A stretch of 64,000 bases of DNA from a virus (taxonomy: Duplodnaviria > Heunggongvirae > Uroviricota > Caudoviricetes), in the IMG/VR virus record IMGVR_UViG_647533160_000003, one strand, 5' to 3'. Shown here piece after piece: positions 5 to 35,958 of the stretch (the stretch's first letter is position 1; each line of letters starts with the position of its first letter). A program made the position numbers and the translations under genes. Under the pieces are notes generated by a model. That model ran no database searches and was not told the DNA's origin. It saw only the letters and a list, made by a program, of their open reading frames with translations.

Positions 5-3000
5 ATGTCACAAAACGTAGAGTTTATCCTGTCGCTGGAAGACAAACAGTTTACAGCGTCAATCGATCGTGCGGGGAAACTGCTTACTCGATTTGGTGAG
101 CAGGTAACAAAGCCTGCTCAAAAAATCCAAACCTTTGAACGCTCTTTGGGTTCGGTCGCCCGTATCATTGGCGTTCTGGAAAGCAAGCTCGATTCTACGG
201 CAGATAAACTACAGGATGTAGCTGCCGGTTTTGAGCTTGCTTCAGATGCTACGCGTAAAATGCGTGGTAACATCACCAGCCTCAATTCTGGTCTTAAAGC
301 CCTGATTGAGCGCGTCGATACGACAACTTCTTCAGTAGATAAACTCACCGCGTCATTACGTAAAGTGCAATCAGAGCTAAATGATTTCTCTGATTGGGCG
401 ACCTATGCAAGCAAAAGCGCAAGCCGCTTTGGTACGGAGGTCAAAGAAGCCTCTGCGTCCGTGAGTGGCATGAATACGCGCCTTAATACCACGACGAAGC
501 GACTCAGTAATTGGGGTGTCACAACGACTCAGGCTGCCGAGGGACTGAAAAAGGTTCGTGAGCAGATGGACGAAGTTATCGGGCGTCAGCAACTGATTAG
601 CAAGCCGGTACGTGTTCGTACATCTGGAAGTGGTGATGGTGGTAGCGGTAGCAGGCAGCGTAGCGGCGCTTCTGGCCATAGCGGTAAAAGTAACGAAGGA
701 GGTATGTTCTCTGGCCTTCGTGGCAACATTTTCCTGCTTGGCGAGATCGGAGATGCAGCCAGAACGGTTACTGACATCATGTTTGGGTGGCAGAAGCCTA
801 TTGTTGAAGCTGCGGCCGAAATGGAACGTATGCGGGTGATGCTTCGAGGGTTGAATAAGGAGAAGTCCAACCCTGGCCAGGCTGCCGCTGATGATATGAA
901 GTACATCGTAGACATGGCTCAAAATGCGCCGTTCGCGATGCAGGCGTTAACAGACTCCTTCGTGAAGTTTCGTTCTGCTGGCTTAGATCCAACCGATGGT
1001 TCTCTGAAGGCGCTGGTGGACTCCGTTGCTCGTTTTGGTGGTGATAGTGAGCTGTTGAAACGTGCGGCTGTGGCCGTTCAGCAGATGTCCGGTAAGGGCG
1101 TTGTGTCAATGGAAGAGCTACGTCAGCAATTAGGTGAAGCCGTTCCTAACGCGATGCAGGCAATGGCAGACGCCGCAGGCATCACTATGGGGGAACTAAC
1201 TAAAGCCGTTGCCAGCGGTACGGTTGAGGCAAAGCAGGCGTTGTCTCTGATGTTTGTTGGTCTGCGTGCGGAGAACGAGAACGCAGCGAAAGACATGATG
1301 CAAACCTACACAGGTGCGCTGGCGCAACTTCAGACGTCATTCACGTTATTTGCTGATCGAGTTGGTCAGGCTGGATATCTGGATTCTCTATCAAAGGGGA
1401 TGAAAGAACTGGCTTCAATCATGAATAGCGCCGAAGGGATTTCGTTTGCCAATTCTTTAGGTTCGGGGTTAACGACGGCAATCGATGGGTTGCGTCAGCT
1501 TGCTCAATGGTTAGCAAAGAACCAAGAGCTGGTAATTAATCTCGGTAAGGTCGTGGCCGCGATGGTTGCGTTCAAACTGATGCGAGCAGGGATCATGGGA
1601 GTAGTTGGCGCAGGCAGCCAGATGGTTAGCACCTTTGCCACGATGGCGACCGCCATACAGACTCCATTTAACCTCGGCGCTACAGCAGTAACTCGATTCA
1701 ATCGTGCGGCACGTATGGGGTTGGCTCCGATCCCCTCTCTTATTTTCGCCATCCGTGGGGCGATTACGGGGCTTAAAGGCGCTTTTGCAGGATTAACGGC
1801 GTTCATTGCAGCAAACCCTATAGGGGCAGCATTTACAGTTGCCACTGTAGCTGTTGCTGGCCTAATCACGTACATGACCATGCTCCGCAGCGAAACTTCA
1901 AAGGTCGTTGACGAGATTAGGAAAATACCAGAAGCGATGACAGCGGCCAAACGTGCACAGATGGCGGAGTATAAAGCGCGTCTTGAGCAACAAATCACGC
2001 AAAAGGAACAAGAGTTAAAATCTGGCGAAAAGGTGGTTTATGGGCCGGGTATGGCCGGAACTACAGTAAAGATTAATCAGGATGAACGTAAGCGTATAGA
2101 AAATGAGCTAAATGACCTTCGTAAGAAACGCGATAAAACTACTGGGGCAATTGAACGCGGAGACATTGCTGTAGCCAAACGTCTTGCAAAAGATGCGGCA
2201 GAATCACAGATAGAGAAAATACGGGAAGAGAATAGAGACTTTGCGGCAACATTCGCTAAAGCTCGTCAAGAGGCTCTGGAGAAGATCCAAAAAATCAATG
2301 ATGACGATTCACTTTCTGATGACGAAAAGAACAAACTATTGGCACCGTTACGTGAAACGGTAAACAAAAGCTATCTGGAGCCTGCGCAAAAACTGGTTGA
2401 TTCACTTTCTTCTCGTAAGAATGCTACCGAGAAGCAAATAGCGACTCTTAATGATCAGCTTGAAAAAGCGAAAAAGGAAGGAAACACCGAGCAGATCAAG
2501 AAACTGCAAGGCAGTATTCGTGGTTATCAGGAGAATTTGGAAGTCGTCGCTCAGGAACTGACTCAGGCAGAGTTCGAGAGAGATAACGCTGCCAAAACTG
2601 GTAAGGGCGTAATGTCAAACCAGGGGACTGTTCTTGGGTTAGGTACAACTGATAAAGCTGCTCAGAAGGCGTTGGCGCAATATATGCGAAACCAGATGGA
2701 TTCTGCGACTTATCAGCGTACTTTGCCTGACGGCACTCCGATGATGGACTTCGAAGGTAAGCCGATTATTGGGCCTAAACAACTCAAGACGCAGCTTAAT
2801 TTGCAGAAAGCATCCAGTGCCAGCTCTCTGGAGAAAATGAGCGATGAAGAGCGTGCCGCAGCCATTGCTGCACTGACTAAAGCTCGTGAACAGGATGCAG
2901 CAGCTGCCGAGAAAGCAGCCCAACGATCAGCTAACGCCTCGCAGCGTGCGGCCAAGAAGGAACAGGCAGCGCAACAGAAACTGGCAGCCGGATACCAGAA

Positions 3001-31805: not shown

Positions 31806-32096
31806 ATGAGCATGTTAACTTCTTGGGAATGGTGGTTGGTCACCTATTTCTTAGCGGCCGGAGTCGCATTCGCCTTTTACGTAGGTCAGTTAGTCGTAAA
31901 ACTGTTGCTGATTAAATTTGCTAGTCATAAACGTATCGATGATGGTCTGTGGCGTCTTGGCACCCTGGTGGAAACTCGCTACGGGCAACTTAAGGAGAAC
32001 GAAACCATTACTATCCAAGCGAAACAATTCACTGCCACCATCACAAGAACACCTAGTCGTAGAGTGGCCTTGATCAAAAAAGTCACAACCGAATAA
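31806..32096 (+). CDS. hypothetical membrane protein (96 aa)
   Basis: N-terminal hydrophobic helix; last + strand ORF before the noncoding/tRNA region. Confidence 0.35.
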   Translation: MSMLTSWEWWLVTYFLAAGVAFAFYVGQLVVKLLLIKFASHKRIDDGLWRLGTLVETRYGQLKENETITIQAKQFTATITRTPSRRVALIKKVTTE

Positions 32097-32106
32097 AAAT
32101 ACAATA

Positions 32107-32131
32107 ATAAGTATTTACTTACCTATCTTTT
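32107..32131 (+). promoter_or_regulatory. copy of recurrent intergenic dyad motif (ATAAGTA..TACTTACCTATC) upstream of noncoding/tRNA region
   Basis: ATAAGTATTTACTTACCTATC, same family as the motif found upstream of many genes in this window; here it precedes a region with no protein-coding gene. Confidence 0.3.
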
Positions 32132-32873
32132 ATGTATAAGATGACTTTGTTTTCGTTGAGACGCGACTGTTTGAACTTAAATACAAGTGCAAACGAAGAA
32201 GTCTATCTGGCAGTAGCCTAATAAGCCAAACACCAGCGAGGTCAGTTTCCAGCCTCGTTACCGAAATGGGACACACTGAGCGAGTGTGATTGCAGAACGC
32301 AGGAGGGAACATGAGAGTTCCCTCCGATGAAGTAACAGAATGGGCGGTCAGTATATTTTCAACTCATATACGACTCCCGGATTCTTAGCCAATGACCGCC
32401 CATCCTGTTACGTCATTTTGTTCAATTATGTCGTTTATACTGGGTTAAAAAGCGGCGACGTAGCCCGGCTGGTATGGTTAGCCAGCACACAACGTTGAGG
32501 CCATTATATTTTTATCAATTCTAAGGTTCTATTCACAGAGATACCGGCGAGCGTTGATATGTAACATGTTGGGCAAACATTCAATCGGAGTAGTGGCCTC
32601 AACGTTGTGAAGACAGGATTGTTGTATAGGTTTAACCACTGTTGCCATTAGTGCCTGTTTTCACAACAAATGATTCCATACATCACATTGTATAAATTAC
32701 AAAGTAGGTGCTGTCCTCAGAAACATCATCTACTTAAAGATTTTGCCTTCTATTGAGCGAAGTCGAAAACGTCTGGCACTAACGGAAAGTGCCAGTAGCG
32801 GTGTGTTTCCTGGCAGAAACTAACACCGCCGCGATTGGCACTGTTGAGTAATAAATACTGGCAGTGCTGAATT

Positions 32874-32948
32874 GATGGTGTAGCTCAGCGGTAGAGCAGT
32901 TGGCTGTTAACCAACTGGTCGGTGGTTCGAATCCACCCACCATCGCCA
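32874..32948 (+). tRNA. tRNA-Asn (anticodon GTT)
   Basis: Cloverleaf by hand: acceptor GATGGTG/CACCATC, D-arm GCTCAGCGGTAGAGC, anticodon stem GTTGG/CCAAC with loop CTGTTAA, T-arm GGTGG-TTCGAAT-CCACC, encoded 3' GCCA. Confidence 0.8.
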
Positions 32949-32953
32949 ATTTA

Positions 32954-33040
32954 GGGGAGTTAGTCCGTAGAGGTAGCGGGACAGACTGTAAATCTACTGT
33001 CATTGCGACTCGGGTGGTTCGACTCCATCACTCCCCACCA
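32954..33040 (+). tRNA. tRNA-Tyr-like (anticodon GTA), long variable arm, imperfect anticodon stem
   Basis: Acceptor GGGGAGT/ACTCCCC, loop CTGTAAA, long variable arm, T-loop TTCGACT, encoded CCA; anticodon stem has two non-Watson-Crick positions, so it may be atypical or a pseudo-tRNA. Confidence 0.55.
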
Positions 33041-33044
33041 AATT

Positions 33045-33120
33045 GCCGGTTTAGCTCAGTTGGTAGAGCGCCTGCCTTGTAAGCAGGATGTCAGCGGTTC
33101 GAGTCCGTTAACCGGCACCA
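33045..33120 (+). tRNA. tRNA-Thr (anticodon TGT)
   Basis: Acceptor GCCGGTT/AACCGGC, D-arm TAGCTCAGTTGGTAGAGC, anticodon stem CCTGC/GCAGG with loop CTTGTAA, T-arm AGCGG-TTCGAGT-CCGTT, encoded CCA. Confidence 0.8.
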
Positions 33121-33344
33121 ATACAACGATAAGATCATTACGGTTAATCGTCGTTCATGTGCACAATGACTGGTCGAAAGGTAGTGATCTTACCGTTGTG
33201 GTGGATTCGCAGACTGATGCGATAGCTTTCTTGGATGTTAGGGAAATGCGGCCGCAAATCTTCCCTTTCGCGAGCGGTGATCGTCCGTAGTCCTAATTGG
33301 CTGCACCGTATGCCGGAGATTCAGTACCGGCCACCACAACGGCC

Positions 33345-33431
33345 GGAGAGTAGGGAGCATGGTGCTCAAGCGGTCTTGAAAATCGTCCCATTGTGCAAAC
33401 GATGATGGTTCGATTCCATTACTCTCCGCCA
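33345..33431 (+). tRNA. tRNA-Ser (anticodon TGA), class II with long variable arm
   Basis: Perfect 7-bp acceptor GGAGAGT/ACTCTCC, anticodon stem GCGGT/ATCGT with loop CTTGAAA, long variable arm, T-arm GATGG-TTCGATT-CCATT, encoded GCCA. Confidence 0.75.
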
Positions 33432-33588
33432 GACACAGCGTTGAGCGGTTTGGCCTTTTAATCAACTCGATTAAGACTCCGCTAACATAAACCAGACCGC
33501 TCAACGCTGTGATTGACAATTACGGCAGACGTTCTTAACCATAGCTTGCTAACATCCTAGCAACACTTTTTTTCAGCGCAATATTCAA

Positions 33589-33608
33589 AGGGGCTTCGGC
33601 CCCTTTTC
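33589..33608. terminator. GC hairpin with TTCG loop, probable bidirectional terminator
   Basis: AAGGGGCTTCGGCCCCTTTTCTT; on + strand follows the tRNA cluster, on - strand lies right after the stop of the 403-aa gene (33610). Confidence 0.55.
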
Positions 33609-33609
33609 T

Positions 33610-34821
33610 TCAAAAAAGTTTTATAAATTCATAATTCTGGTCAATTAAGGATTCAATACACACCATGCAAAAATCTACATCGTTAAAATCAGGTGTGTAA
33701 TATTCATCCTCATAACATTCATTTAGACCTTCAATCAATTTTTCTTTAAAAACTCCCCACGTTTCAATATGAACCATTTCCATATAAGGCGCATGTGTAT
33801 GTACTTGCAATACATCCCAGGTGTCTATAACCTCGATCCGCGGCTTGCAATTAATTTTTTCTAAATATGCCCTCCCAGAATTGTAAATTTTCGACATTGA
33901 TGCCCCAAAACCTGATGGTTGGTAATGAGTGTAAATGTCATAAATTTTTTGTCCTATTCTAGGGAGTTGAGAAGCATTGGATATTTGTGGCGAATGAAAG
34001 TATCGCTCTATGGAAGAAAACGCAGAAACATTAACTAGAGTAATCGTATATGGTGCTAAAGTTCTCTCGTTCAAATTTCTACATAAAATAGCAAACCCAT
34101 GGCTATTAGTCTTTTCACCGTCTGAGGACATTTTTGCCATGCTGGCTTTAATAACATTCAATTTCGAATGTAAACGAGAAGTGGAAGTCGGTTGATTATA
34201 CATTTCATCATCATACAAACATATATGAAACCCGCCAAGATGACGAAATGAGAACTTGAGTGCTTCTTCCGCAATAACTAATTTATTAATATCTAAAGGA
34301 GTAAGTGATACGTTACCTTGTAAATCATAGCAAGGTTCTAAACATAGAAAGTTTTTCTTCTGCCACACGATCATATTAAAAATAAAGTGTCTAACCAAAG
34401 GTGGCCAGTCAGGTGATATAAGTACATTGGTAATATCTCCATCAGACAAGTATGACAAGTAACTTTTTAGTTCCGCAGCATATGCCACTAGCTCAGTTCC
34501 AGCTTCCCTTGTTGGTGTTGAAAAATTTTTTAACTCAATAAGAACTAAGGATTCATTCTCTGTTGAATAAGCAACGACATCAGGTCTTAATATCTCAGAT
34601 TTTGTTGCTGAGATATTCTCATCATCTGTCATTAAATGTAACAATGTTATGTTCTTTAAACAAAACTGATAACTCTCCTTAATTTTTTTCTCTTCGGGTC
34701 TTTTCGGATTAAATTCATTTAATTTATCAATATTGATGATTGAATTATATAATCCATCTTGATCAGATAATTTGTCAATTATCCAATTTTGCATTTCCTT
34801 TTCGCTTAAAAATATTGACAC
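33610..34821 (-). CDS. hypothetical protein with N-terminal PD-(D/E)xK-like nuclease motif (403 aa); second gene of AT-rich accessory operon
   Basis: Motif RPDVVAYSTENESLVLIELK (aa ~79-99) fits a restriction-endonuclease-like core; hand-counted sample lines are about one-third G+C versus about one-half in neighbouring core genes; 26-nt gap to upstream gene on same strand. Confidence 0.55.
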   Translation of the reverse strand: MSIFLSEKEMQNWIIDKLSDQDGLYNSIINIDKLNEFNPKRPEEKKIKESYQFCLKNITLLHLMTDDENISATKSEILRPDVVAYSTENESLVLIELKNFSTPTREAGTELVAYAAELKSYLSYLSDGDITNVLISPDWPPLVRHFIFNMIVWQKKNFLCLEPCYDLQGNVSLTPLDINKLVIAEEALKFSFRHLGGFHICLYDDEMYNQPTSTSRLHSKLNVIKASMAKMSSDGEKTNSHGFAILCRNLNERTLAPYTITLVNVSAFSSIERYFHSPQISNASQLPRIGQKIYDIYTHYQPSGFGASMSKIYNSGRAYLEKINCKPRIEVIDTWDVLQVHTHAPYMEMVHIETWGVFKEKLIEGLNECYEDEYYTPDFNDVDFCMVCIESLIDQNYEFIKLF

Positions 34822-34847
34822 TAATTAGGCTCCCGTTAAACCAAAAA

Positions 34848-35669
34848 TTAAAAATCTTGCTTTACTTTATCCATGGTCAGAATTTTGCTAATAATTGAAG
34901 ATTCAAATCCATCTAAACCTGAGAGAAAGTTAATTAGCTTTTGGATATGTTGTTCTTTAGGTATAAGTATATATTTTATATCATTGAACTCAAAATCAAT
35001 GCCAAACTTTGAAAATTTTGAGCTAATTTTTGCTTTGTCATCAGAAGTGATAACACGCTCCAAACTCAGACTAGGCCATAAATCACCAATAAAAGGAGCT
35101 GGCACATAACGCCACTCTTTCTCGTCTGCATATATATAATTCTCTATTGTTTTATTATCTTTTCGCTCTAGCTTGCCTCTGTAATTTTTCATATAACGCA
35201 GTAAATTATATAGATCAGAATATTCTGCTTTCAATTTCTCAAACTCTATTCTGTTTTTGGTATCTAAATTTCCTCTAGCCTTCCAAAGCGGCACCAACTT
35301 ATTTTTAATAAGTCGAATTCTGGCATTGTATTTAGAAAATATTTCACTACTCTTATTCATATATAGAACTGGGTGTAGACCTTTCTTTTCCGCCCAAGAC
35401 TTAGTTAGCCCAAGACCGAATTCTCCATATTTTCCGCTATGATCTCTGATTTGTGATAGTTTTATGTCACAAAACGATACCATTGGTACTGCAAACCTCC
35501 TGCGTCCCCCGACTCCTCTTATTTCCTCGCGAGCAAGAAATGGTTTAAAATATTTCTCAGCCAATATGCTATAGAAAGCATCTTCGTTTTTTGTAAAATG
35601 AAACAACGTGGTTGGATGAAGACTATAAACAGATTCAACATTCGCATCAGGATTTTCAAGGATAGTCAT
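34848..35669 (-). CDS. hypothetical protein (approx 273 aa); first gene of AT-rich accessory operon
   Basis: AT-rich ORF co-oriented with the nuclease-motif gene; probable start at Met16 of the track ORF (MTILENPD); no motif recognised. Confidence 0.5.
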   Translation of the reverse strand: MTILENPDANVESVYSLHPTTLFHFTKNEDAFYSILAEKYFKPFLAREEIRGVGGRRRFAVPMVSFCDIKLSQIRDHSGKYGEFGLGLTKSWAEKKGLHPVLYMNKSSEIFSKYNARIRLIKNKLVPLWKARGNLDTKNRIEFEKLKAEYSDLYNLLRYMKNYRGKLERKDNKTIENYIYADEKEWRYVPAPFIGDLWPSLSLERVITSDDKAKISSKFSKFGIDFEFNDIKYILIPKEQHIQKLINFLSGLDGFESSIISKILTMDKVKQDF

Positions 35670-35958
35670 TTTACACCTTGTGGAAAGCCAGTTTAGTTCT
35701 GTAAATAGTATCACACGACAGGCGGCTATTCTTCTATCAATAAATGATAGGTAAGCACTTACTTTTTACGCACGTTAACTGTATAGTTCTTTCGGATACT
35801 CACTTGAAAGGACTCAATATGGGAAATAAATGTAAACATGCGCGTCGCGCATCTCGTCAGGTGCAGAAGTCAAATCCATACATTCACGAGCACTACCACC
35901 TCAGCTCTTTCACTAACCGCTACACGTTCCCCAGCGAAGCGCATAACGAGGCAAAGCA

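Follow-up and report, generated by a model that had tools for sequence, protein, structure and literature searches.

The window, the full 64,000-nt stretch analyzed here, is an SSU5-like phage-plasmid. It shares 97% identity with Escherichia phages CMS-2020a and Cyrano, and an E. coli plasmid is 99.9% identical to it. On the + strand, positions 32114–33610 look like a single RNA operon of ~1.45 kb (Table 1), running 5′ to 3′ from a candidate promoter through a structured RNA of ~340 nt and long CACAAC/GTTGTG stems to tRNA-Asn, -Tyr and -Thr, followed by a hairpin and a tRNA-shaped element, tRNA-Ser, a further hairpin and terminators. In the tRNA cluster that a preliminary description had reported, ARAGORN finds tRNA-Asn, -Tyr, -Thr and -Ser, and the 770-bp “noncoding” stretch of that description is the front part of the operon. 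As it had stated, there is no convincing ORF at 32100–32870: none exceeds 60 aa, and indels among relatives have lengths that are not multiples of three. Short hypothetical CDSs are annotated within the homologous region in a few database records. The region has matches in 773 plasmid records and 317 phage records, the distance from the RNA start to tRNA-Asn is 625–738 nt (44 distinct relatives), and length, sequence and pairing are kept across Escherichia, Salmonella, Klebsiella, Enterobacter, Citrobacter and Yersinia plasmids. The putative promoter was not listed by a consensus scan because just 8/12 positions match; its block AAGTATTTACTTA...TATAAGAT is kept in 10 SSU5-like relatives, and Felix O1-like copies have TTGACA-17-TAAGAT at an equal distance from GTTTTCG. 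At the other end, one terminator-like hairpin reads TTGCTA...TAGCAA before a T7 tract and the other GGGGC-TTCG-GCCCC before TTTTCTTC. The RNA operon, which converges with the AbiGi cassette, probably ends at these hairpins; they went unlisted by the scan tool probably because A-T pairs lengthen the second stem into the T run.

Table 1. Features of the putative RNA operon, in window positions.
Feature	Position	Strand	Basis or score
Candidate sigma-70 promoter, TTTACT-17 nt-TAAGAT	32114–32142	+	predicted; predicted start ~32149
tmRNA-like core, 155 nt	32148–32302	+	covariance model and alignments
Start-less 10-codon tag frame, ANEEVYLAVA and two stops	32189–32224	+	read from sequence; ARAGORN
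Post-frame hairpin (32236–42/32252–58) and pseudoknots a, b	32236–32300	+	pairing/covariation
Hairpin P6, perfect 9 bp, 32302–32310/32317–32325	32302–32325	+	fold z = -4.63
Hairpin I1, 24-bp interrupted stem 32327–32350/32393–32416, variable loop	32327–32416	+	z = -6.67
3′ domain of conserved RNA	32426–32486	+	pairing in 22 sequences
Hairpin I4, CACAAC-GTTGAGGCC...GGCCTCAAC-GTTGTG, 19-bp stem, 84-nt loop	32488–32609	+	z = -6.01
Hairpin I8, GTTGTGAAGACAGG...CCTGTTTTCACAAC, 32604–32617/32654–32667	32604–32667	+	z = -5.25
Hairpin 5′ of tRNA-Asn, GCGGTGTG...CACCGC	32798–32829	+	RNAalifold
tRNA-Asn(GTT)	32874–32948	+	ARAGORN; Rfam tRNA 75.5 bits
tRNA-Tyr(GTA)	32954–33040	+	ARAGORN; Rfam tRNA 32.9 bits
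tRNA-Thr(TGT)	33045–33120	+	ARAGORN; Rfam tRNA 74.9 bits
Hairpin I2, ACAAC-GATAAGATCA...TGATCTTACC-GTTGTG, 33118–33141/33181–33204	33118–33204	+	z = -4.79
Element B, tRNA-shaped unit	33193–33342	+	covarying stems; fold z = -2.43
tRNA-Ser(TGA)	33345–33431	+	ARAGORN
Hairpin I3, CACAGC-GTTGAGCGGTTTGG...CCAGACCGCTCAAC-GCTGTG, 20-bp stem, 33434–33453/33492–33511	33434–33511	+	z = -9.89
Two terminator-like hairpins	33546–33610	+	predicted, read from sequence

The predicted first product of the operon is a conserved structured RNA at about 32148–32486, whose 5′ 155 nt (the core) share the layout of the tmRNA messenger half. An invariant 5′ motif, (U)GUUUUCGUUG at 32148–32158, is followed by a stem, an AUA-type resume context (ACAAGU, 32183–32188), the tag frame, a hairpin and two pseudoknots. 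In pseudoknot a, the hairpin loop (32247–51) pairs with 32267–71; pseudoknot b comprises the stem 32272–77/32283–88 plus 32280–82/32298–300. These helices are 98.5–100% paired in 22 SSU5-like sequences. Pairing in 39 lambdoid and Felix O1-like cores is 92.8%, versus 36–46% with slid partners, with compensatory changes in 3/5 pairs of the post-frame hairpin and in both pseudoknots (2/4 pairs of a, which is 100% paired, and 2/6 pairs of stem 1 of b). A covariance model trained only on the lambdoid and Felix O1-like copies, without SSU5-like sequences, has its sole significant match within the window at 32148–32300 (72.5 bits, E = 1.3e-14), and also matches phages P7 (E = 8.4e-15) and Michonne (E = 1.8e-29). 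The core is present in unrelated phage families and in numerous phages of enterobacteria (SSU5-like, P7 of the P1 family, Felix O1-like, HK620-like), and the SSU5-like, lambdoid, Felix O1-like and P7 cores appear to form one family. The element was found only on phages, prophages and phage-plasmids; it is covered by no Rfam family, nor by any paper in the literature library searched, and we found no earlier description of it.

The tag frame of the window reads GCA AAC GAA GAA GTC TAT CTG GCA GTA GCC, then TAA TAA, and with relaxed thresholds ARAGORN calls a tmRNA resume consensus and tag here. This reading frame, the key feature of the RNA, had gone unseen in the preliminary description. Family-wide, 26 nucleotide variants of the frame encode 15 peptides of the pattern AN[DE][DENT]x[YF]LAVA or ANDDLMMAAA, although most members were gathered with a pattern fixing 18/33 tag positions, where invariance is by construction. 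All 26 have 10 codons and then a stop (TAA in 23, TAG in 2, TGA in 1), without indels, behind a hexamer AUAAAU, AUAACU or ACAAGU. Variation is found at the third position of 8/10 codons and at the first and second positions of 4 each, 11 variants are purely synonymous, and the divergent P7 copy encodes an Ala-rich AAA ending via three different Ala codons (GCA GCG GCC). Codons 7–10 sit within conserved helices. Judged from these sequences, the frame looks translated. Of the roles previously offered for the region (RNA processing structures, a small RNA, or recombination or binding sites), the small RNA is strongly supported, in a larger and more specific form: ~340 nt with a candidate promoter and a tag template.

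Downstream of the core, P6 (a perfect hairpin, described earlier as a 9-bp stem at 32303–32325) has 5/9 pairs altered on both sides among SSU5-like relatives, for example GGAGGGAA/TTCCCTCC versus ATAGGGCATG/CATGCCCTAT. I1 is 93% paired, with two compensatory pairs and five G-C/G-U pairs in the 22 SSU5-like sequences, and is retained in the divergent relative L021; a 9-bp stem described at 32342–32401 is present, but as only the inner part of I1. The 3′ domain consists of a helix (32426–35/32454–63) and a hairpin (32468–73/32481–86) with the 7-nt loop AUGGUUA, both 100% paired in the 22 sequences, with one compensatory pair (GCTGA/TCAGC, L012). In the divergent relatives L021, L056 and L104, conservation extends no further than this, which puts the 3′ boundary of the unit near 32486.

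The long hairpins are conserved + strand stems with a CACAAC...GTTGTG base, located at the joints between the structured RNA, the tRNAs and the tRNA-shaped element. Stem z-scores are -4.6 to -9.9, with 0/200 dinucleotide shuffles folding equally well; the exception is the 150-nt element at 33193–33342 (z = -2.4). In the 22 SSU5-like sequences, 95.4% of cells are paired (35–46% with slid partners), 13 pairs are altered on both sides, and 0/500 shuffles match the covariation score. One-sided changes are mostly G-C/G-U or A-U/G-U; as these would be A-C mismatches on the other strand, selection acts on the + strand. Every stem of the preliminary description is present, above chance and with compensatory changes in relatives, where the region is conserved. 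Its perfect 16-bp inverted repeat (32488–32503/32594–32609) extends to the 19 bp of I4 (32488–32506/32591–32609), its 20-bp stem after tRNA-Ser is I3 (95% complementary), and CGTTGAG does occur in both long hairpins; missing from it were a third such hairpin (I2), I8 and the helix 33193–33204/33331–33342. I4 is 98.8% paired, with three compensatory pairs (G-C to A-U in 10/21 sequences), and in the relative L111 it is precisely missing between the two CAACGTTG copies. I8 has GTTGTG in common with I4, and the two pairings are therefore alternative or mutually stacking; its arms vary by lineage (AAGACAGG/CCTGTTTT versus GTCACGG/CCGTGGC), and just 68% of cells are paired in the MAFFT alignment. 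For the hairpin preceding tRNA-Asn, RNAalifold pairs GCGG/CCGC, one pair changing from G-C to A-U in six sequences. I2 begins within the CCA of tRNA-Thr and has the arm type of the lambdoid module CACAAC-AGGTAAGAGCA...TGCTCTTTCC-GTTGTG; in phage Cyrano, which lacks I2 and Element B, tRNA-Thr leads via CCA-ACACAAT directly to tRNA-Ser. The I3 arms are identical in Klebsiella phage pJN2-26 with a largely different loop, and in lambdoid phages the loops of equivalent hairpins are exchanged wholesale. Whole modules occur in some relatives and not in others, with breakpoints at short CACAAC or CAACGTTG repeats.

Element B is closed by a perfect 12-bp helix (CCGTTGTGGTGG/CCACCACAACGG) and contains a 5′ hairpin (TCGCA-GACTGA-TGCGA), a variable centre and, immediately 5′ of the closing strand, a 3′ hairpin (GCCGG-AGATTCAGTA-CCGGC). 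Its ends are conserved and its interior is variable (16 distinct versions); the stems covary (GCGCA/TGCGC, GCGTA/TACGT, TCGCA/TGCGA; CCGG/CCGG, CAGG/CCTG), as do its two complementary loops (GCTGA/TCAGC, GCTGA/TCAGT, ACTGA/TCAGT). The candidate gammaproteobacterial sRNA STnc100 (RF02076) has this architecture, with UGGTG...CACCA as the closing helix and, inside it, one hairpin on the 5′ side and another on the 3′ side abutting the closing strand. In P7, the unit that follows tRNA-Ser reaches 43 bits where the STnc100 threshold is 47; Element B of the window has no match to STnc100 even at E ≤ 10. We know of no function for STnc100.

The core resembles tmRNA (ssrA; RF00023, clan CL00001) in its GCA resume codon after an A/U-rich AUA-type hexamer (AUAGUC in E. 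coli), its short start-less frame for an AND-type tag equal in length to that of E. coli (ANDENYALAA), its first 8 nt of template (GCAAACGA, identical to E. coli), its stop codons in or beside a small helix, and its pseudoknots after the frame; the best sub-threshold Rfam matches at the core, at three loci, are all to tmRNA families. However, neither ARAGORN nor Rfam finds a tRNA-like domain at the core. We therefore rejected it as a tmRNA, and since it has no acceptor stem, T-arm or CCA end, it cannot be charged. It also has a plain stem upstream of the frame, where no pseudoknot was found, is 155–185 nt long (363 nt for E. coli tmRNA), specifies tags ending LAVA, LAAA or MAAA instead of ALAA, and has Rfam scores of 11–22 bits against a threshold of 47. 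Outside the tag, similarity to E. coli tmRNA is not significant (local alignment 41 versus 29.7 ± 5.3 for shuffles), and the family covariance model scores 9.7 bits on E. coli ssrA. In the two-piece (permuted) tmRNAs of alpha-proteobacteria and cyanobacteria (RF04321 and relatives), a single gene gives rise to the two pieces, which base-pair to restore the tRNA-like domain. The phage core is similar in that the messenger piece is apart from the 3′ acceptor end, and weak Rfam matches at the P7 and L112 cores are to RF04321, but no conserved partner piece was found. Structured RNAs co-transcribed or co-located with phage tRNA genes also include T4 species 1 and 2 (RNA C and D), stable non-tRNA RNAs inside the tRNA cluster, and GOLLD and ROOL, large phage-associated RNAs often beside tRNAs. 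To our knowledge none of these carries a tmRNA-type tag frame, and the tmRNA-like RNA has no match to GOLLD, ROOL or another Rfam family. Like RNase III stems (rRNA operon, rRNA intervening sequences, T7 early RNA), the 19–24 bp phage stems bracket a variable, possibly discarded insert and lie between functional RNAs of one transcript, where they may be cleaved; unlike those, several also behave as DNA rearrangement units.

The 5′ motif includes an invariant seed, GUUUUCG, complementary to host tmRNA tag codons 3–5; for E. coli, the complement of GUUUUCGU(U/C) is the tmRNA tag stretch GAC GAA AAC U. The seed is unpaired in minimum-energy and centroid folds and lies at the transcript's predicted +1 in both classes that have a promoter of their own. 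With E. coli ssrA it pairs best at nt 95–106 (-12.8 to -15.8 kcal/mol); for a given 9-mer, the chance of a perfect site in 363 nt is p ~0.0014, for a complementarity noticed post hoc with E. coli ssrA as the only target compared. Because the seed is identical among phages of different host genera, it offers no covariation test of pairing with tmRNA. The best explanation, to which we give a probability of roughly 0.45, would be docking on host tmRNA with delivery of an alternative tag, the hairpins serving as processing or protecting stems.

Rather than a template, the RNA could be a decoy that mimics the messenger part of tmRNA and soaks up a host factor (the SmpB tail, protein S1, RNase R or the empty mRNA channel), or an antisense RNA whose 5′ end simply blocks or destabilises host tmRNA, the tag going untranslated in either case. 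This would agree with the absence from every class of a conserved tRNA-like domain, with the complementarity of the 5′ motif to host tag codons, and with the helices over codons 7–10, which could make frame conservation partly structural. We consider it rather unlikely in view of the 11 purely synonymous variants, the third-position bias, the constant length, the three stop types at one position, and the Ala-rich end that the divergent P7 copy retains with three different Ala codons. Quite unlikely, in our estimation, is a tRNA-like half supplied by the phage. The tag module would then resemble a two-piece or rearranged tmRNA, its partner being a nearby tRNA or tRNA-like unit that shares its transcript and is left unprocessed or kept in place by the long stems. 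The surroundings of the core always include tRNAs or tRNA-like units: tRNA-Arg(TCT) is directly 3′ in Felix O1-like phages, tRNA-Asn follows in SSU5-like phages and P7, T-arms (GGGTTCGAATCCC) occur in some hairpin loops, Element B is tRNA-shaped, and in the L112/L097 class the core is directly followed by a unit of ~150 nt that combines an acceptor-like stem of 7 bp with a P2-like helix, a T-arm and an encoded U-CCA end. However, no partner is conserved across classes, the HK620 leader is without any tRNA, the divergent SSU5-like relatives L021, L056 and L104 have none within 1.3 kb, the core of the window lies 570 nt upstream of its nearest tRNA, Element B lacks a conserved CCA, and no candidate has the G3:U70 pair needed for alanine charging.

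The hairpins, for their part, might act mainly as DNA, as recombination sites or small, palindromic, attC- or MITE-like mobile cassettes shuffling RNA genes among phages, with RNA structure incidental. A DNA-level role is hinted at by module breakpoints in short repeats (including the I4 deletion between CAACGTTG copies), by the 212-nt block (I2 and Element B) missing from Cyrano and bounded by ACAAC in the window, by the Y. pestis caf locus starting just past the I4 3′ arm, by lambdoid module loops that are wholly different between otherwise near-identical cores, and by CACAAC/GTTGTG, a perfect palindrome whose AAC/GTT triplet is also in integron attC sites. That this role predominates is unlikely, as G-U intermediates are tolerated only in the + strand reading, the stems have neither the unpaired spacer nor the extrahelical bases of attC, CACAAC/GTTGTG does not match RYYYAAC/GTTRRRY, no dedicated recombinase is conserved beside the arrays (Felix O1-like, lambdoid and P1-like genomes), and the stems adjoin tRNA 3′ ends exactly, where transcript processing occurs. 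The compensatory changes and many G-U intermediates would fit RNA processing or stabilising stems, and the DNA and RNA roles are not exclusive. The CACAAC motifs could also titrate host GcvB, like AgvB, in a regulatory array unrelated to ribosome rescue, since the consensus target published for the R1 seed of GcvB, which AgvB uses, is CACAACA (Tree et al, 2014; PMC4104026), a motif present at 32662–32668 and in most of the lambdoid modules. AgvB and AsxR are likewise phage-borne anti-sRNAs that base-pair with host RNA. In lambdoid prophages AgvB is situated 3′ of PR′ (PMC4104026), and the lambdoid copies of our family occupy that same slot between Q and the lysis genes. We hold this very improbable: AgvB-type RNAs are 51–60 nt with a variable 5′ end and their own conserved terminator, without tag frame or pseudoknots (PMC4104026), the motif here is paired with GTTGTG in stable stems and so not obviously free, and the tag frame and pseudoknots would be left unexplained. 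A decayed gene or neutral spacer with chance palindromes, for which the few annotated CDSs might speak and which had been named as an alternative at the outset, has a negligible probability. It is refuted by covariation in the SSU5-like and the lambdoid and Felix O1-like sets and by covariance-model matches in unrelated phage families, together with the conservation across genera and fold z-scores to -9.9.

The hairpins are real but not the main point, which is the tag-bearing RNA. A 10-bp duplex would not obviously halt a ribosome or switch its template, and we know of no mechanism for short-duplex template switching on the ribosome. Under docking on host tmRNA, the RNA, having no acceptor end of its own, would have to borrow one, most economically from host tmRNA-SmpB; the source of the acceptor function may differ among phages, because some classes have tRNA-like units beside the core. 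The hairpins would most probably work at the level of the transcript, releasing the RNA and the tRNAs as RNase III-type processing sites or 3′-end protectors, and their short repeats would also allow module swapping by recombination. Docking could occur through the 5′ seed, given its complementarity and the first 8 nt of template in common; the tag frame would then be translated, and stalled ribosomes would be handed a phage-specified tag, ...YLAVA, in place of ...YALAA.

Escherichia phages CMS-2020a and Cyrano match the window at 96-97.5% identity over 32000-33700. For 32097-32873, one E. coli plasmid reaches 99.9% identity, and ~78% is seen with Salmonella phage SSU5 and with plasmids of Enterobacter, Citrobacter, Salmonella, Klebsiella and Yersinia pestis (pMT1). 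Based on these identities, the window was therefore classified as an SSU5-like phage-plasmid. SSU5, Cyrano and Klebsiella phage pJN2-26 have a common gene order: DNA ligase, small ORFs, a gene-free stretch of ~750 nt and tRNA-Asn. ARAGORN confirmed the tRNA cluster of the preliminary description, identifying tRNA-Asn, Tyr, Thr and Ser, and Rfam returned nothing beyond tRNAs for the region, even at E<=10. The tRNA-Tyr is absent from the otherwise 96% identical Cyrano (Asn, Thr and Ser there), which again points to array units coming and going one at a time. Two minus-strand ORFs lie directly past the terminators, convergent with the RNA operon: one of the AbiGi family (Pfam PF10899, E=4.8e-25; PADLOC AbiGi, E=5e-47) and a 403-aa partner with only a weak HSDR_N-like match. 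Together they look like an abortive-infection cassette, and an AbiGi gene is also found downstream of the tRNAs in a Klebsiella oxytoca relative.

The gene-free stretch encodes an RNA whose 5' part (the core) resembles the messenger part of tmRNA. A covariance model (R1) built from 39 lambdoid and Felix O1-like cores, with no SSU5-like sequence in it, matches window 32148-32300 at 72.5 bits (E=1.3e-14), its sole significant match in the 64 kb, and all helices of the family model pair in the window. It also picked out a copy in P7, a phage of the P1 family; this copy encodes the tag ANDDLMMAAA and lies in the interval from the C1 operator Op(ban) to tRNA-Asn. In every class the order is an invariant (A/U)GUUUUCG, a variable small hairpin, a stem, and a hexamer (AUAAAU, AUAACU or ACAAGU); next comes the 10-codon frame, whose stop falls within or adjacent to a small helix, then a hairpin that forms pseudoknot a through pairing of its loop with downstream sequence, and finally a second pseudoknot. 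Across the 39 cores, 92.8% of cells are paired, compared with 36-46% when partners are slid, and compensatory changes are seen in 3/5 pairs of the hairpin, 2/4 of pseudoknot a (with 100% pairing) and 2/6 of stem 1 of pseudoknot b. The two pseudoknots downstream of the frame are supported by covariation; on the upstream side none was seen, the lambdoid class having a plain stem in that position, and the total is two versus four in E. coli tmRNA.

The extent of the RNA was taken from three divergent SSU5-like loci (L021, L056 and L104), which retain the promoter block, the core, hairpins 32302-32325 and I1, and a 3' domain ending with the hairpin GGCTGG-YATGGTTAG-CCAGC. Past this point they diverge and have neither another hairpin nor a tRNA, which sets the length of the conserved unit at ~339 nt. 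Both the minimum-energy and the centroid structure leave its first 11 nt unpaired. When the window sequence alone is folded for minimum energy, the last four tag codons (CTGGCAGTAGCC) are predicted to pair with the 3'-terminal GGTTAGCCAG, which would close the whole RNA into a ring; as the two strands of this pairing hardly vary, covariation gives no information on it. Candidate internal partners for the 5' GUUUUCG (CGAAA at 32263, or the RNA's own tag codons 2-3) were rejected, as they are not conserved between classes, and a tRNA-like reading of the 3' hairpin was rejected for lack of a T-loop, G3:U70 and a conserved CCA.

The tag frame reads GCA AAC GAA GAA GTC TAT CTG GCA GTA GCC TAA TAA (ANEEVYLAVA and two stops) and lacks a start codon; the E. 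coli tmRNA tag is ANDENYALAA. The resume codon GCA follows ACAAGU in the window and AUAAAU or AUAACU elsewhere, and ARAGORN, at relaxed thresholds, labels the window sequence as a tmRNA 'Resume consensus sequence' with its tag. In tmRNA, a determinant precedes the resume codon, and a short frame without a start codon encodes a degradation tag whose last residues are hydrophobic or Ala, followed by a stop; the core shares these features. Among the collected loci, 26 nucleotide versions encode 15 peptides, 11 differences being purely synonymous, and every version has 10 codons with a stop as the next triplet (TAA 23, TAG 2, TGA 1). By codon position, variable sites number 8 at the third, 4 at the first and 4 at the second; as the collection pattern fixed 18/33 positions, only the free ones inform on frame constraint. 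The divergent P7 copy keeps the Ala-rich end with three different Ala codons. Judging from the sequences, the frame is likely translated. An alternative frame (ATG/GTG CAA ACG ...) was discarded, since neither its start (CTG or CAG in some copies) nor its peptide is conserved.

By BLAST, the surrounding 100-110 nt recur at ~77% identity, never annotated, in four other settings: Felix O1-like phages, inside the tRNA array (in Michonne, for instance, tRNA-Ile and tRNA-Arg flank it and a perfect TTGACA-17-TAAGAT promoter precedes it); phage HK620, in the leader of the late operon, with qut on one side and the terminator tQ on the other; Klebsiella phage Carvaje, upstream of tRNA-Ser; and E. coli prophages (135/5426 complete genomes), where the inspected copies lie between Q and the holin gene. 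Scanning IMG/VR with the tag pattern gave >120 loci in ~60 sequence classes. The 185,579 species-representative genomes yielded only 3 real copies (Buttiauxella, Kluyvera and Pseudocitrobacter), all on these types of mobile element, and 18 chance matches. A second collection scan, using the pseudoknot motif CGGTRTGATTAATAA, returned mostly chance matches and gained one LAAA tag and one AKDD tag.

tmRNAs are defined by tRNA-like and messenger parts joined in one molecule or one paired complex, and their tRNA-like domain comprises a 7-bp acceptor stem with G3:U70, a T-arm and a 3' (N)CCA. The window RNA, in contrast, has no acceptor stem, T-arm or CCA end, and no class has them as a conserved feature. 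A complete or permuted tmRNA was sought: with default settings ARAGORN reported no tmRNA in the window or 8 related loci, relaxed settings recovered the tag with meaningless tRNA domains that fall in the upstream CDS, amid 7 other spurious calls, and reading through 32148-32486 we found no T-loop or acceptor-like pairing. Rfam gave no tmRNA match in the window even at E<=10 and none at threshold in 13 further loci; the best matches at the core in P7, HK620 and L112 (an IMG/VR contig) are all to tmRNA families, at a sub-threshold 11-22 bits (threshold 47). Recent capture of host ssrA was also considered; sequence similarity to E. coli ssrA is limited to the tag: local alignment is not significant outside it, and the family model scores ssrA at 9.7 bits. 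We therefore rejected both explanations; in likeness the core corresponds to the messenger part of tmRNA, yet it falls outside the tmRNA family, as the defining half is absent. In L112 and a second IMG/VR contig, L097, a tRNA-like unit of ~150 nt directly follows the core, ~10-170 nt downstream, with GCCGTTA, a P2-like helix (ATCTGACT/AGTCAGAT), GGATGTAAGG (E. coli tmRNA: GGATGTAGGA), a T-arm (TGGGTTCGACTCCCT), AAAACGGC and T-CCA. This unit encodes its CCA, lacks G3:U70 and is not called by ARAGORN; it could be a separated tRNA-like half in that class.

Coordinates of the features discussed (window positions unless another record is named; for the hairpins with a folding z, 0/200 shuffles folded as well)
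Feature	Coordinates	Strand	Folding z	Remarks
RNA operon	32114-33610	+		
tmRNA-like core	32148-32302	+		
Conserved RNA unit	~32148-32486	+	-5.24	339 nt
Tag frame	32189-32224	+		
Predicted ring closure	32207-32218 / 32476-32486	+		
3' hairpin of unit	32468-32486	+		
Hairpin	32302-32325	+	-4.63	
Hairpin I1	32327-32416	+	-6.67	
Hairpin I4	32488-32609	+	-6.01	19-bp stem; after RNA
Hairpin I8	32604-32667	+	-5.25	GTTGTG in common with I4
CACAAC(A)	32488-32493, 32662-32668, 33337-33342	+		
tRNA-Tyr	32954-33040	+		
Hairpin I2	33118-33204	+	-4.79	begins in CCA of tRNA-Thr
Element B	33193-33342	+	-2.43	weaker folding; between tRNA-Thr and tRNA-Ser
Hairpin I3	33434-33511	+	-9.89	begins two bases past tRNA-Ser
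Hairpins followed by T runs	33546-33575, 33590-33610	+		
403-aa partner ORF	33610-34821	-		cassette 33610-35714
AbiGi-family ORF	34848-35714	-		
P7 (L244) features	988-1159, 2051-2137, 2247-2362			
Carvaje (L006) T-arm hairpin	2625-2700			
Y. pestis pMT1 (L007)	1201-1720			RNA and first long hairpin

All of the stems in the preliminary description are present, and three further ones of like kind had been overlooked. The comparison with related phages also bore it out, with the stems kept and compensatory changes in SSU5-like relatives. In an alignment of 22 non-redundant SSU5-like sequences, running from the predicted RNA start to tRNA-Asn, the proposed structure (10 helices, 97 pairs) pairs in 95.4% of cells, compared with 35-46% when partners are slid 1-3 columns; 13 pairs changed on both sides, compared with 1-5 in slid controls, and 0/500 column shuffles reached the observed covariation score. 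For instance, 5/9 pairs of hairpin 32302-32325 changed across these relatives, and the I4 stem has A-U in place of G-C in 10 sequences. Where only one side of a pair changed, the exchange is nearly always G-C/G-U or A-U/G-U, which is tolerable only if the folded molecule is the plus strand; this is also the strand of the tRNAs, which argues for a structure at the RNA level. The hairpins are selected structures. Where a small RNA or processing structures had been guessed, there is a widespread phage RNA with a tag template together with plus-strand stems, so that the guess pointed the right way and fell short of the real content.

The long hairpins are all built on the base CACAAC...GTTGTG, whose two halves together form a perfect palindrome, and they sit at transcript joints; in pJN2-26 and P7 a like hairpin starts in or beside the CCA of tRNA-Asn or tRNA-Thr. 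The arms of the lambdoid hairpin are conserved (CACAAC-AGGTAAGAGCA...TGCTCTTTCC-GTTGTG) and covary between classes, and its loops (40-110 nt) are wholly different among otherwise near-identical cores. Some loops carry T-arms (GGGTTCGAGTCCC / GGGTTCGAATCCC / GGCGGTTCGACTCCGC; Carvaje and the lambdoid contigs L016, L121 and L022) and, with the enclosing stem, look like mini-tRNAs lacking a D-arm; at the Carvaje hairpin, the only such example scanned, ARAGORN reported no tRNA. Modules also differ between relatives: I2 and the adjoining Element B are absent in Cyrano, and I4 is precisely absent in the Klebsiella-type locus L111 compared with L003, another of that type (equivalent of window 32494-32601). 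The L111 deletion runs exactly between two copies of the palindromic 8-mer CAACGTTG, leaving the junction CGCAAC|GTTGTG. In pMT1, the RNA and the first long hairpin are kept and homology stops just past the 3' arm GCTGTGAAATCC, followed by caf1R of the F1 capsule locus; from this arrangement, the capsule locus seems to have entered at the hairpin joint, displacing the tRNA part.

Most likely, the long hairpins serve as plus-strand stems that guide processing or protect ends in a polycistronic RNA, and their short repeats would make the modules exchangeable. RNase III substrates consist of about two helical turns of duplex RNA, which the window stems (19-24 bp) fit in length, making them putative cleavage sites. 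Recombination sites had also been proposed, and integron attC sites were considered and rejected. CACAAC/GTTGTG keeps the AAC/GTT of attC, but each core has one position off the RYYYAAC / GTTRRRY consensus; the I4 and I3 stems pair throughout, without an unpaired central spacer or extrahelical bases, and the Felix O1-like, lambdoid and P1-like genomes have no integrase conserved beside the arrays. Intrinsic termination, which takes a G+C-rich hairpin with a T run directly behind it, was likewise assessed: no T run follows I1, I4, I8, I2 or I3, and T runs follow only the last two hairpins of the operon. The conserved promoter candidate and the end terminators were both absent from the output of a promoter/terminator scan. 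The sequence GTTGTGATG in P7 and pJN2-26, complementary to CACAAC(A), matches the start of the R1 seed of the host sRNA GcvB. CACAAC(A) recurs in the window and equals the published GcvB target consensus; AgvB uses this GcvB target motif, CACAACA, to which the base of the present hairpins is identical (Tree et al. 2014, PMC4104026). The likeness could be fortuitous or could reflect an additional layer of function.

Element B is closed by a 12-bp helix, which encloses a 5' hairpin, a variable centre and, abutting the closing strand, a 3' hairpin. Among 16 distinct versions the stems covary, and the loops are mutually complementary and covary as well (GCTGA/TCAGC, GCTGA/TCAGT, ACTGA/TCAGT). Although tRNA-shaped, it was rejected as tRNA-like, having no T-loop, G3:U70 or conserved CCA. 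STnc100 (RF02076) has the same layout: a sister unit in P7 scores 43 bits against it (threshold 47), and window 33110-33350 has no STnc100 match at E<=10. In P7, the core lies upstream of tRNA-Asn and tRNA-Thr, and a tRNA-Ser(TGA) is missing from the record annotation.

The invariant 5' motif is complementary to nt 95-106 of E. coli tmRNA, i.e., tag codons 3-5 (GAC GAA AAC U), with predicted duplexes of 8-10 bp and -12.8 to -15.8 kcal/mol against E. coli ssrA, the one ssrA compared. The complementarity was noticed post hoc, with p ~0.0014 for a given 9-mer. The motif stands at the predicted +1 in both classes with their own promoter and elsewhere is preceded by a strong hairpin. Phage and host templates share GCAAACGA and diverge exactly where the complementarity starts; the host E-N codons, which would let the RNA pair with itself, occur in 0/15 phage tags. 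Because the motif is complementary to host tag codons, docking is our preferred, unproven mechanism. The phage RNA 5' end would anneal to tag codons 3-5 of host tmRNA, placing the phage resume codon, with its shared GCAAACGA, beside that of the host. After rescue by host tmRNA-SmpB, a ribosome would complete translation on the phage template, and the ClpXP degradation tag would give way to one set by the phage (...YLAVA or ...MAAA). We infer both the ribosome's route to the tag and the role of the stems. That the RNA is a messenger-only tmRNA relative which reprograms host ribosome rescue, as three-RNA trans-translation in P7, SSU5/pHCM2/pMT1-type plasmids, Felix O1-like phages and lambdoid prophages, is a tentative reading, to which we give a probability of roughly 0.2.

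The identity and structure of the family are well supported: it is a widespread phage RNA, undescribed in the sources searched, which carries the tag template of tmRNA and lacks the tRNA-like half, and it sits among tRNAs and stem-bracketed RNA cassettes that make up a modular array. No description of the core was found in the literature searched, which took in few subscription journals, such that an earlier report is possible; the closest published work (Tree et al. 2014, PMC4104026) describes AgvB and AsxR, anti-sRNAs of 51-60 nt that lie 3' of PR', the position also taken by the lambdoid copies. The finding provides a testable function for long-unexplained stretches, namely the P7 ban-region leader upstream of tRNA genes, the HK620-like Q-to-S late leader, the gap in the Felix O1-type tRNA array and the region upstream of caf1R on Y. 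pestis pMT1. The placement with tRNA genes and beside an abortive-infection cassette suggests a link to defence systems that cut tRNAs or mRNAs and strand ribosomes. A conserved, messenger-only phage version of tmRNA would be new whether translated or not: if translated, it would represent a new entry into the stalled ribosome and phage control over the fate of rescued proteins, and if not, a mimic with which phages target the main ribosome-rescue system of the host.
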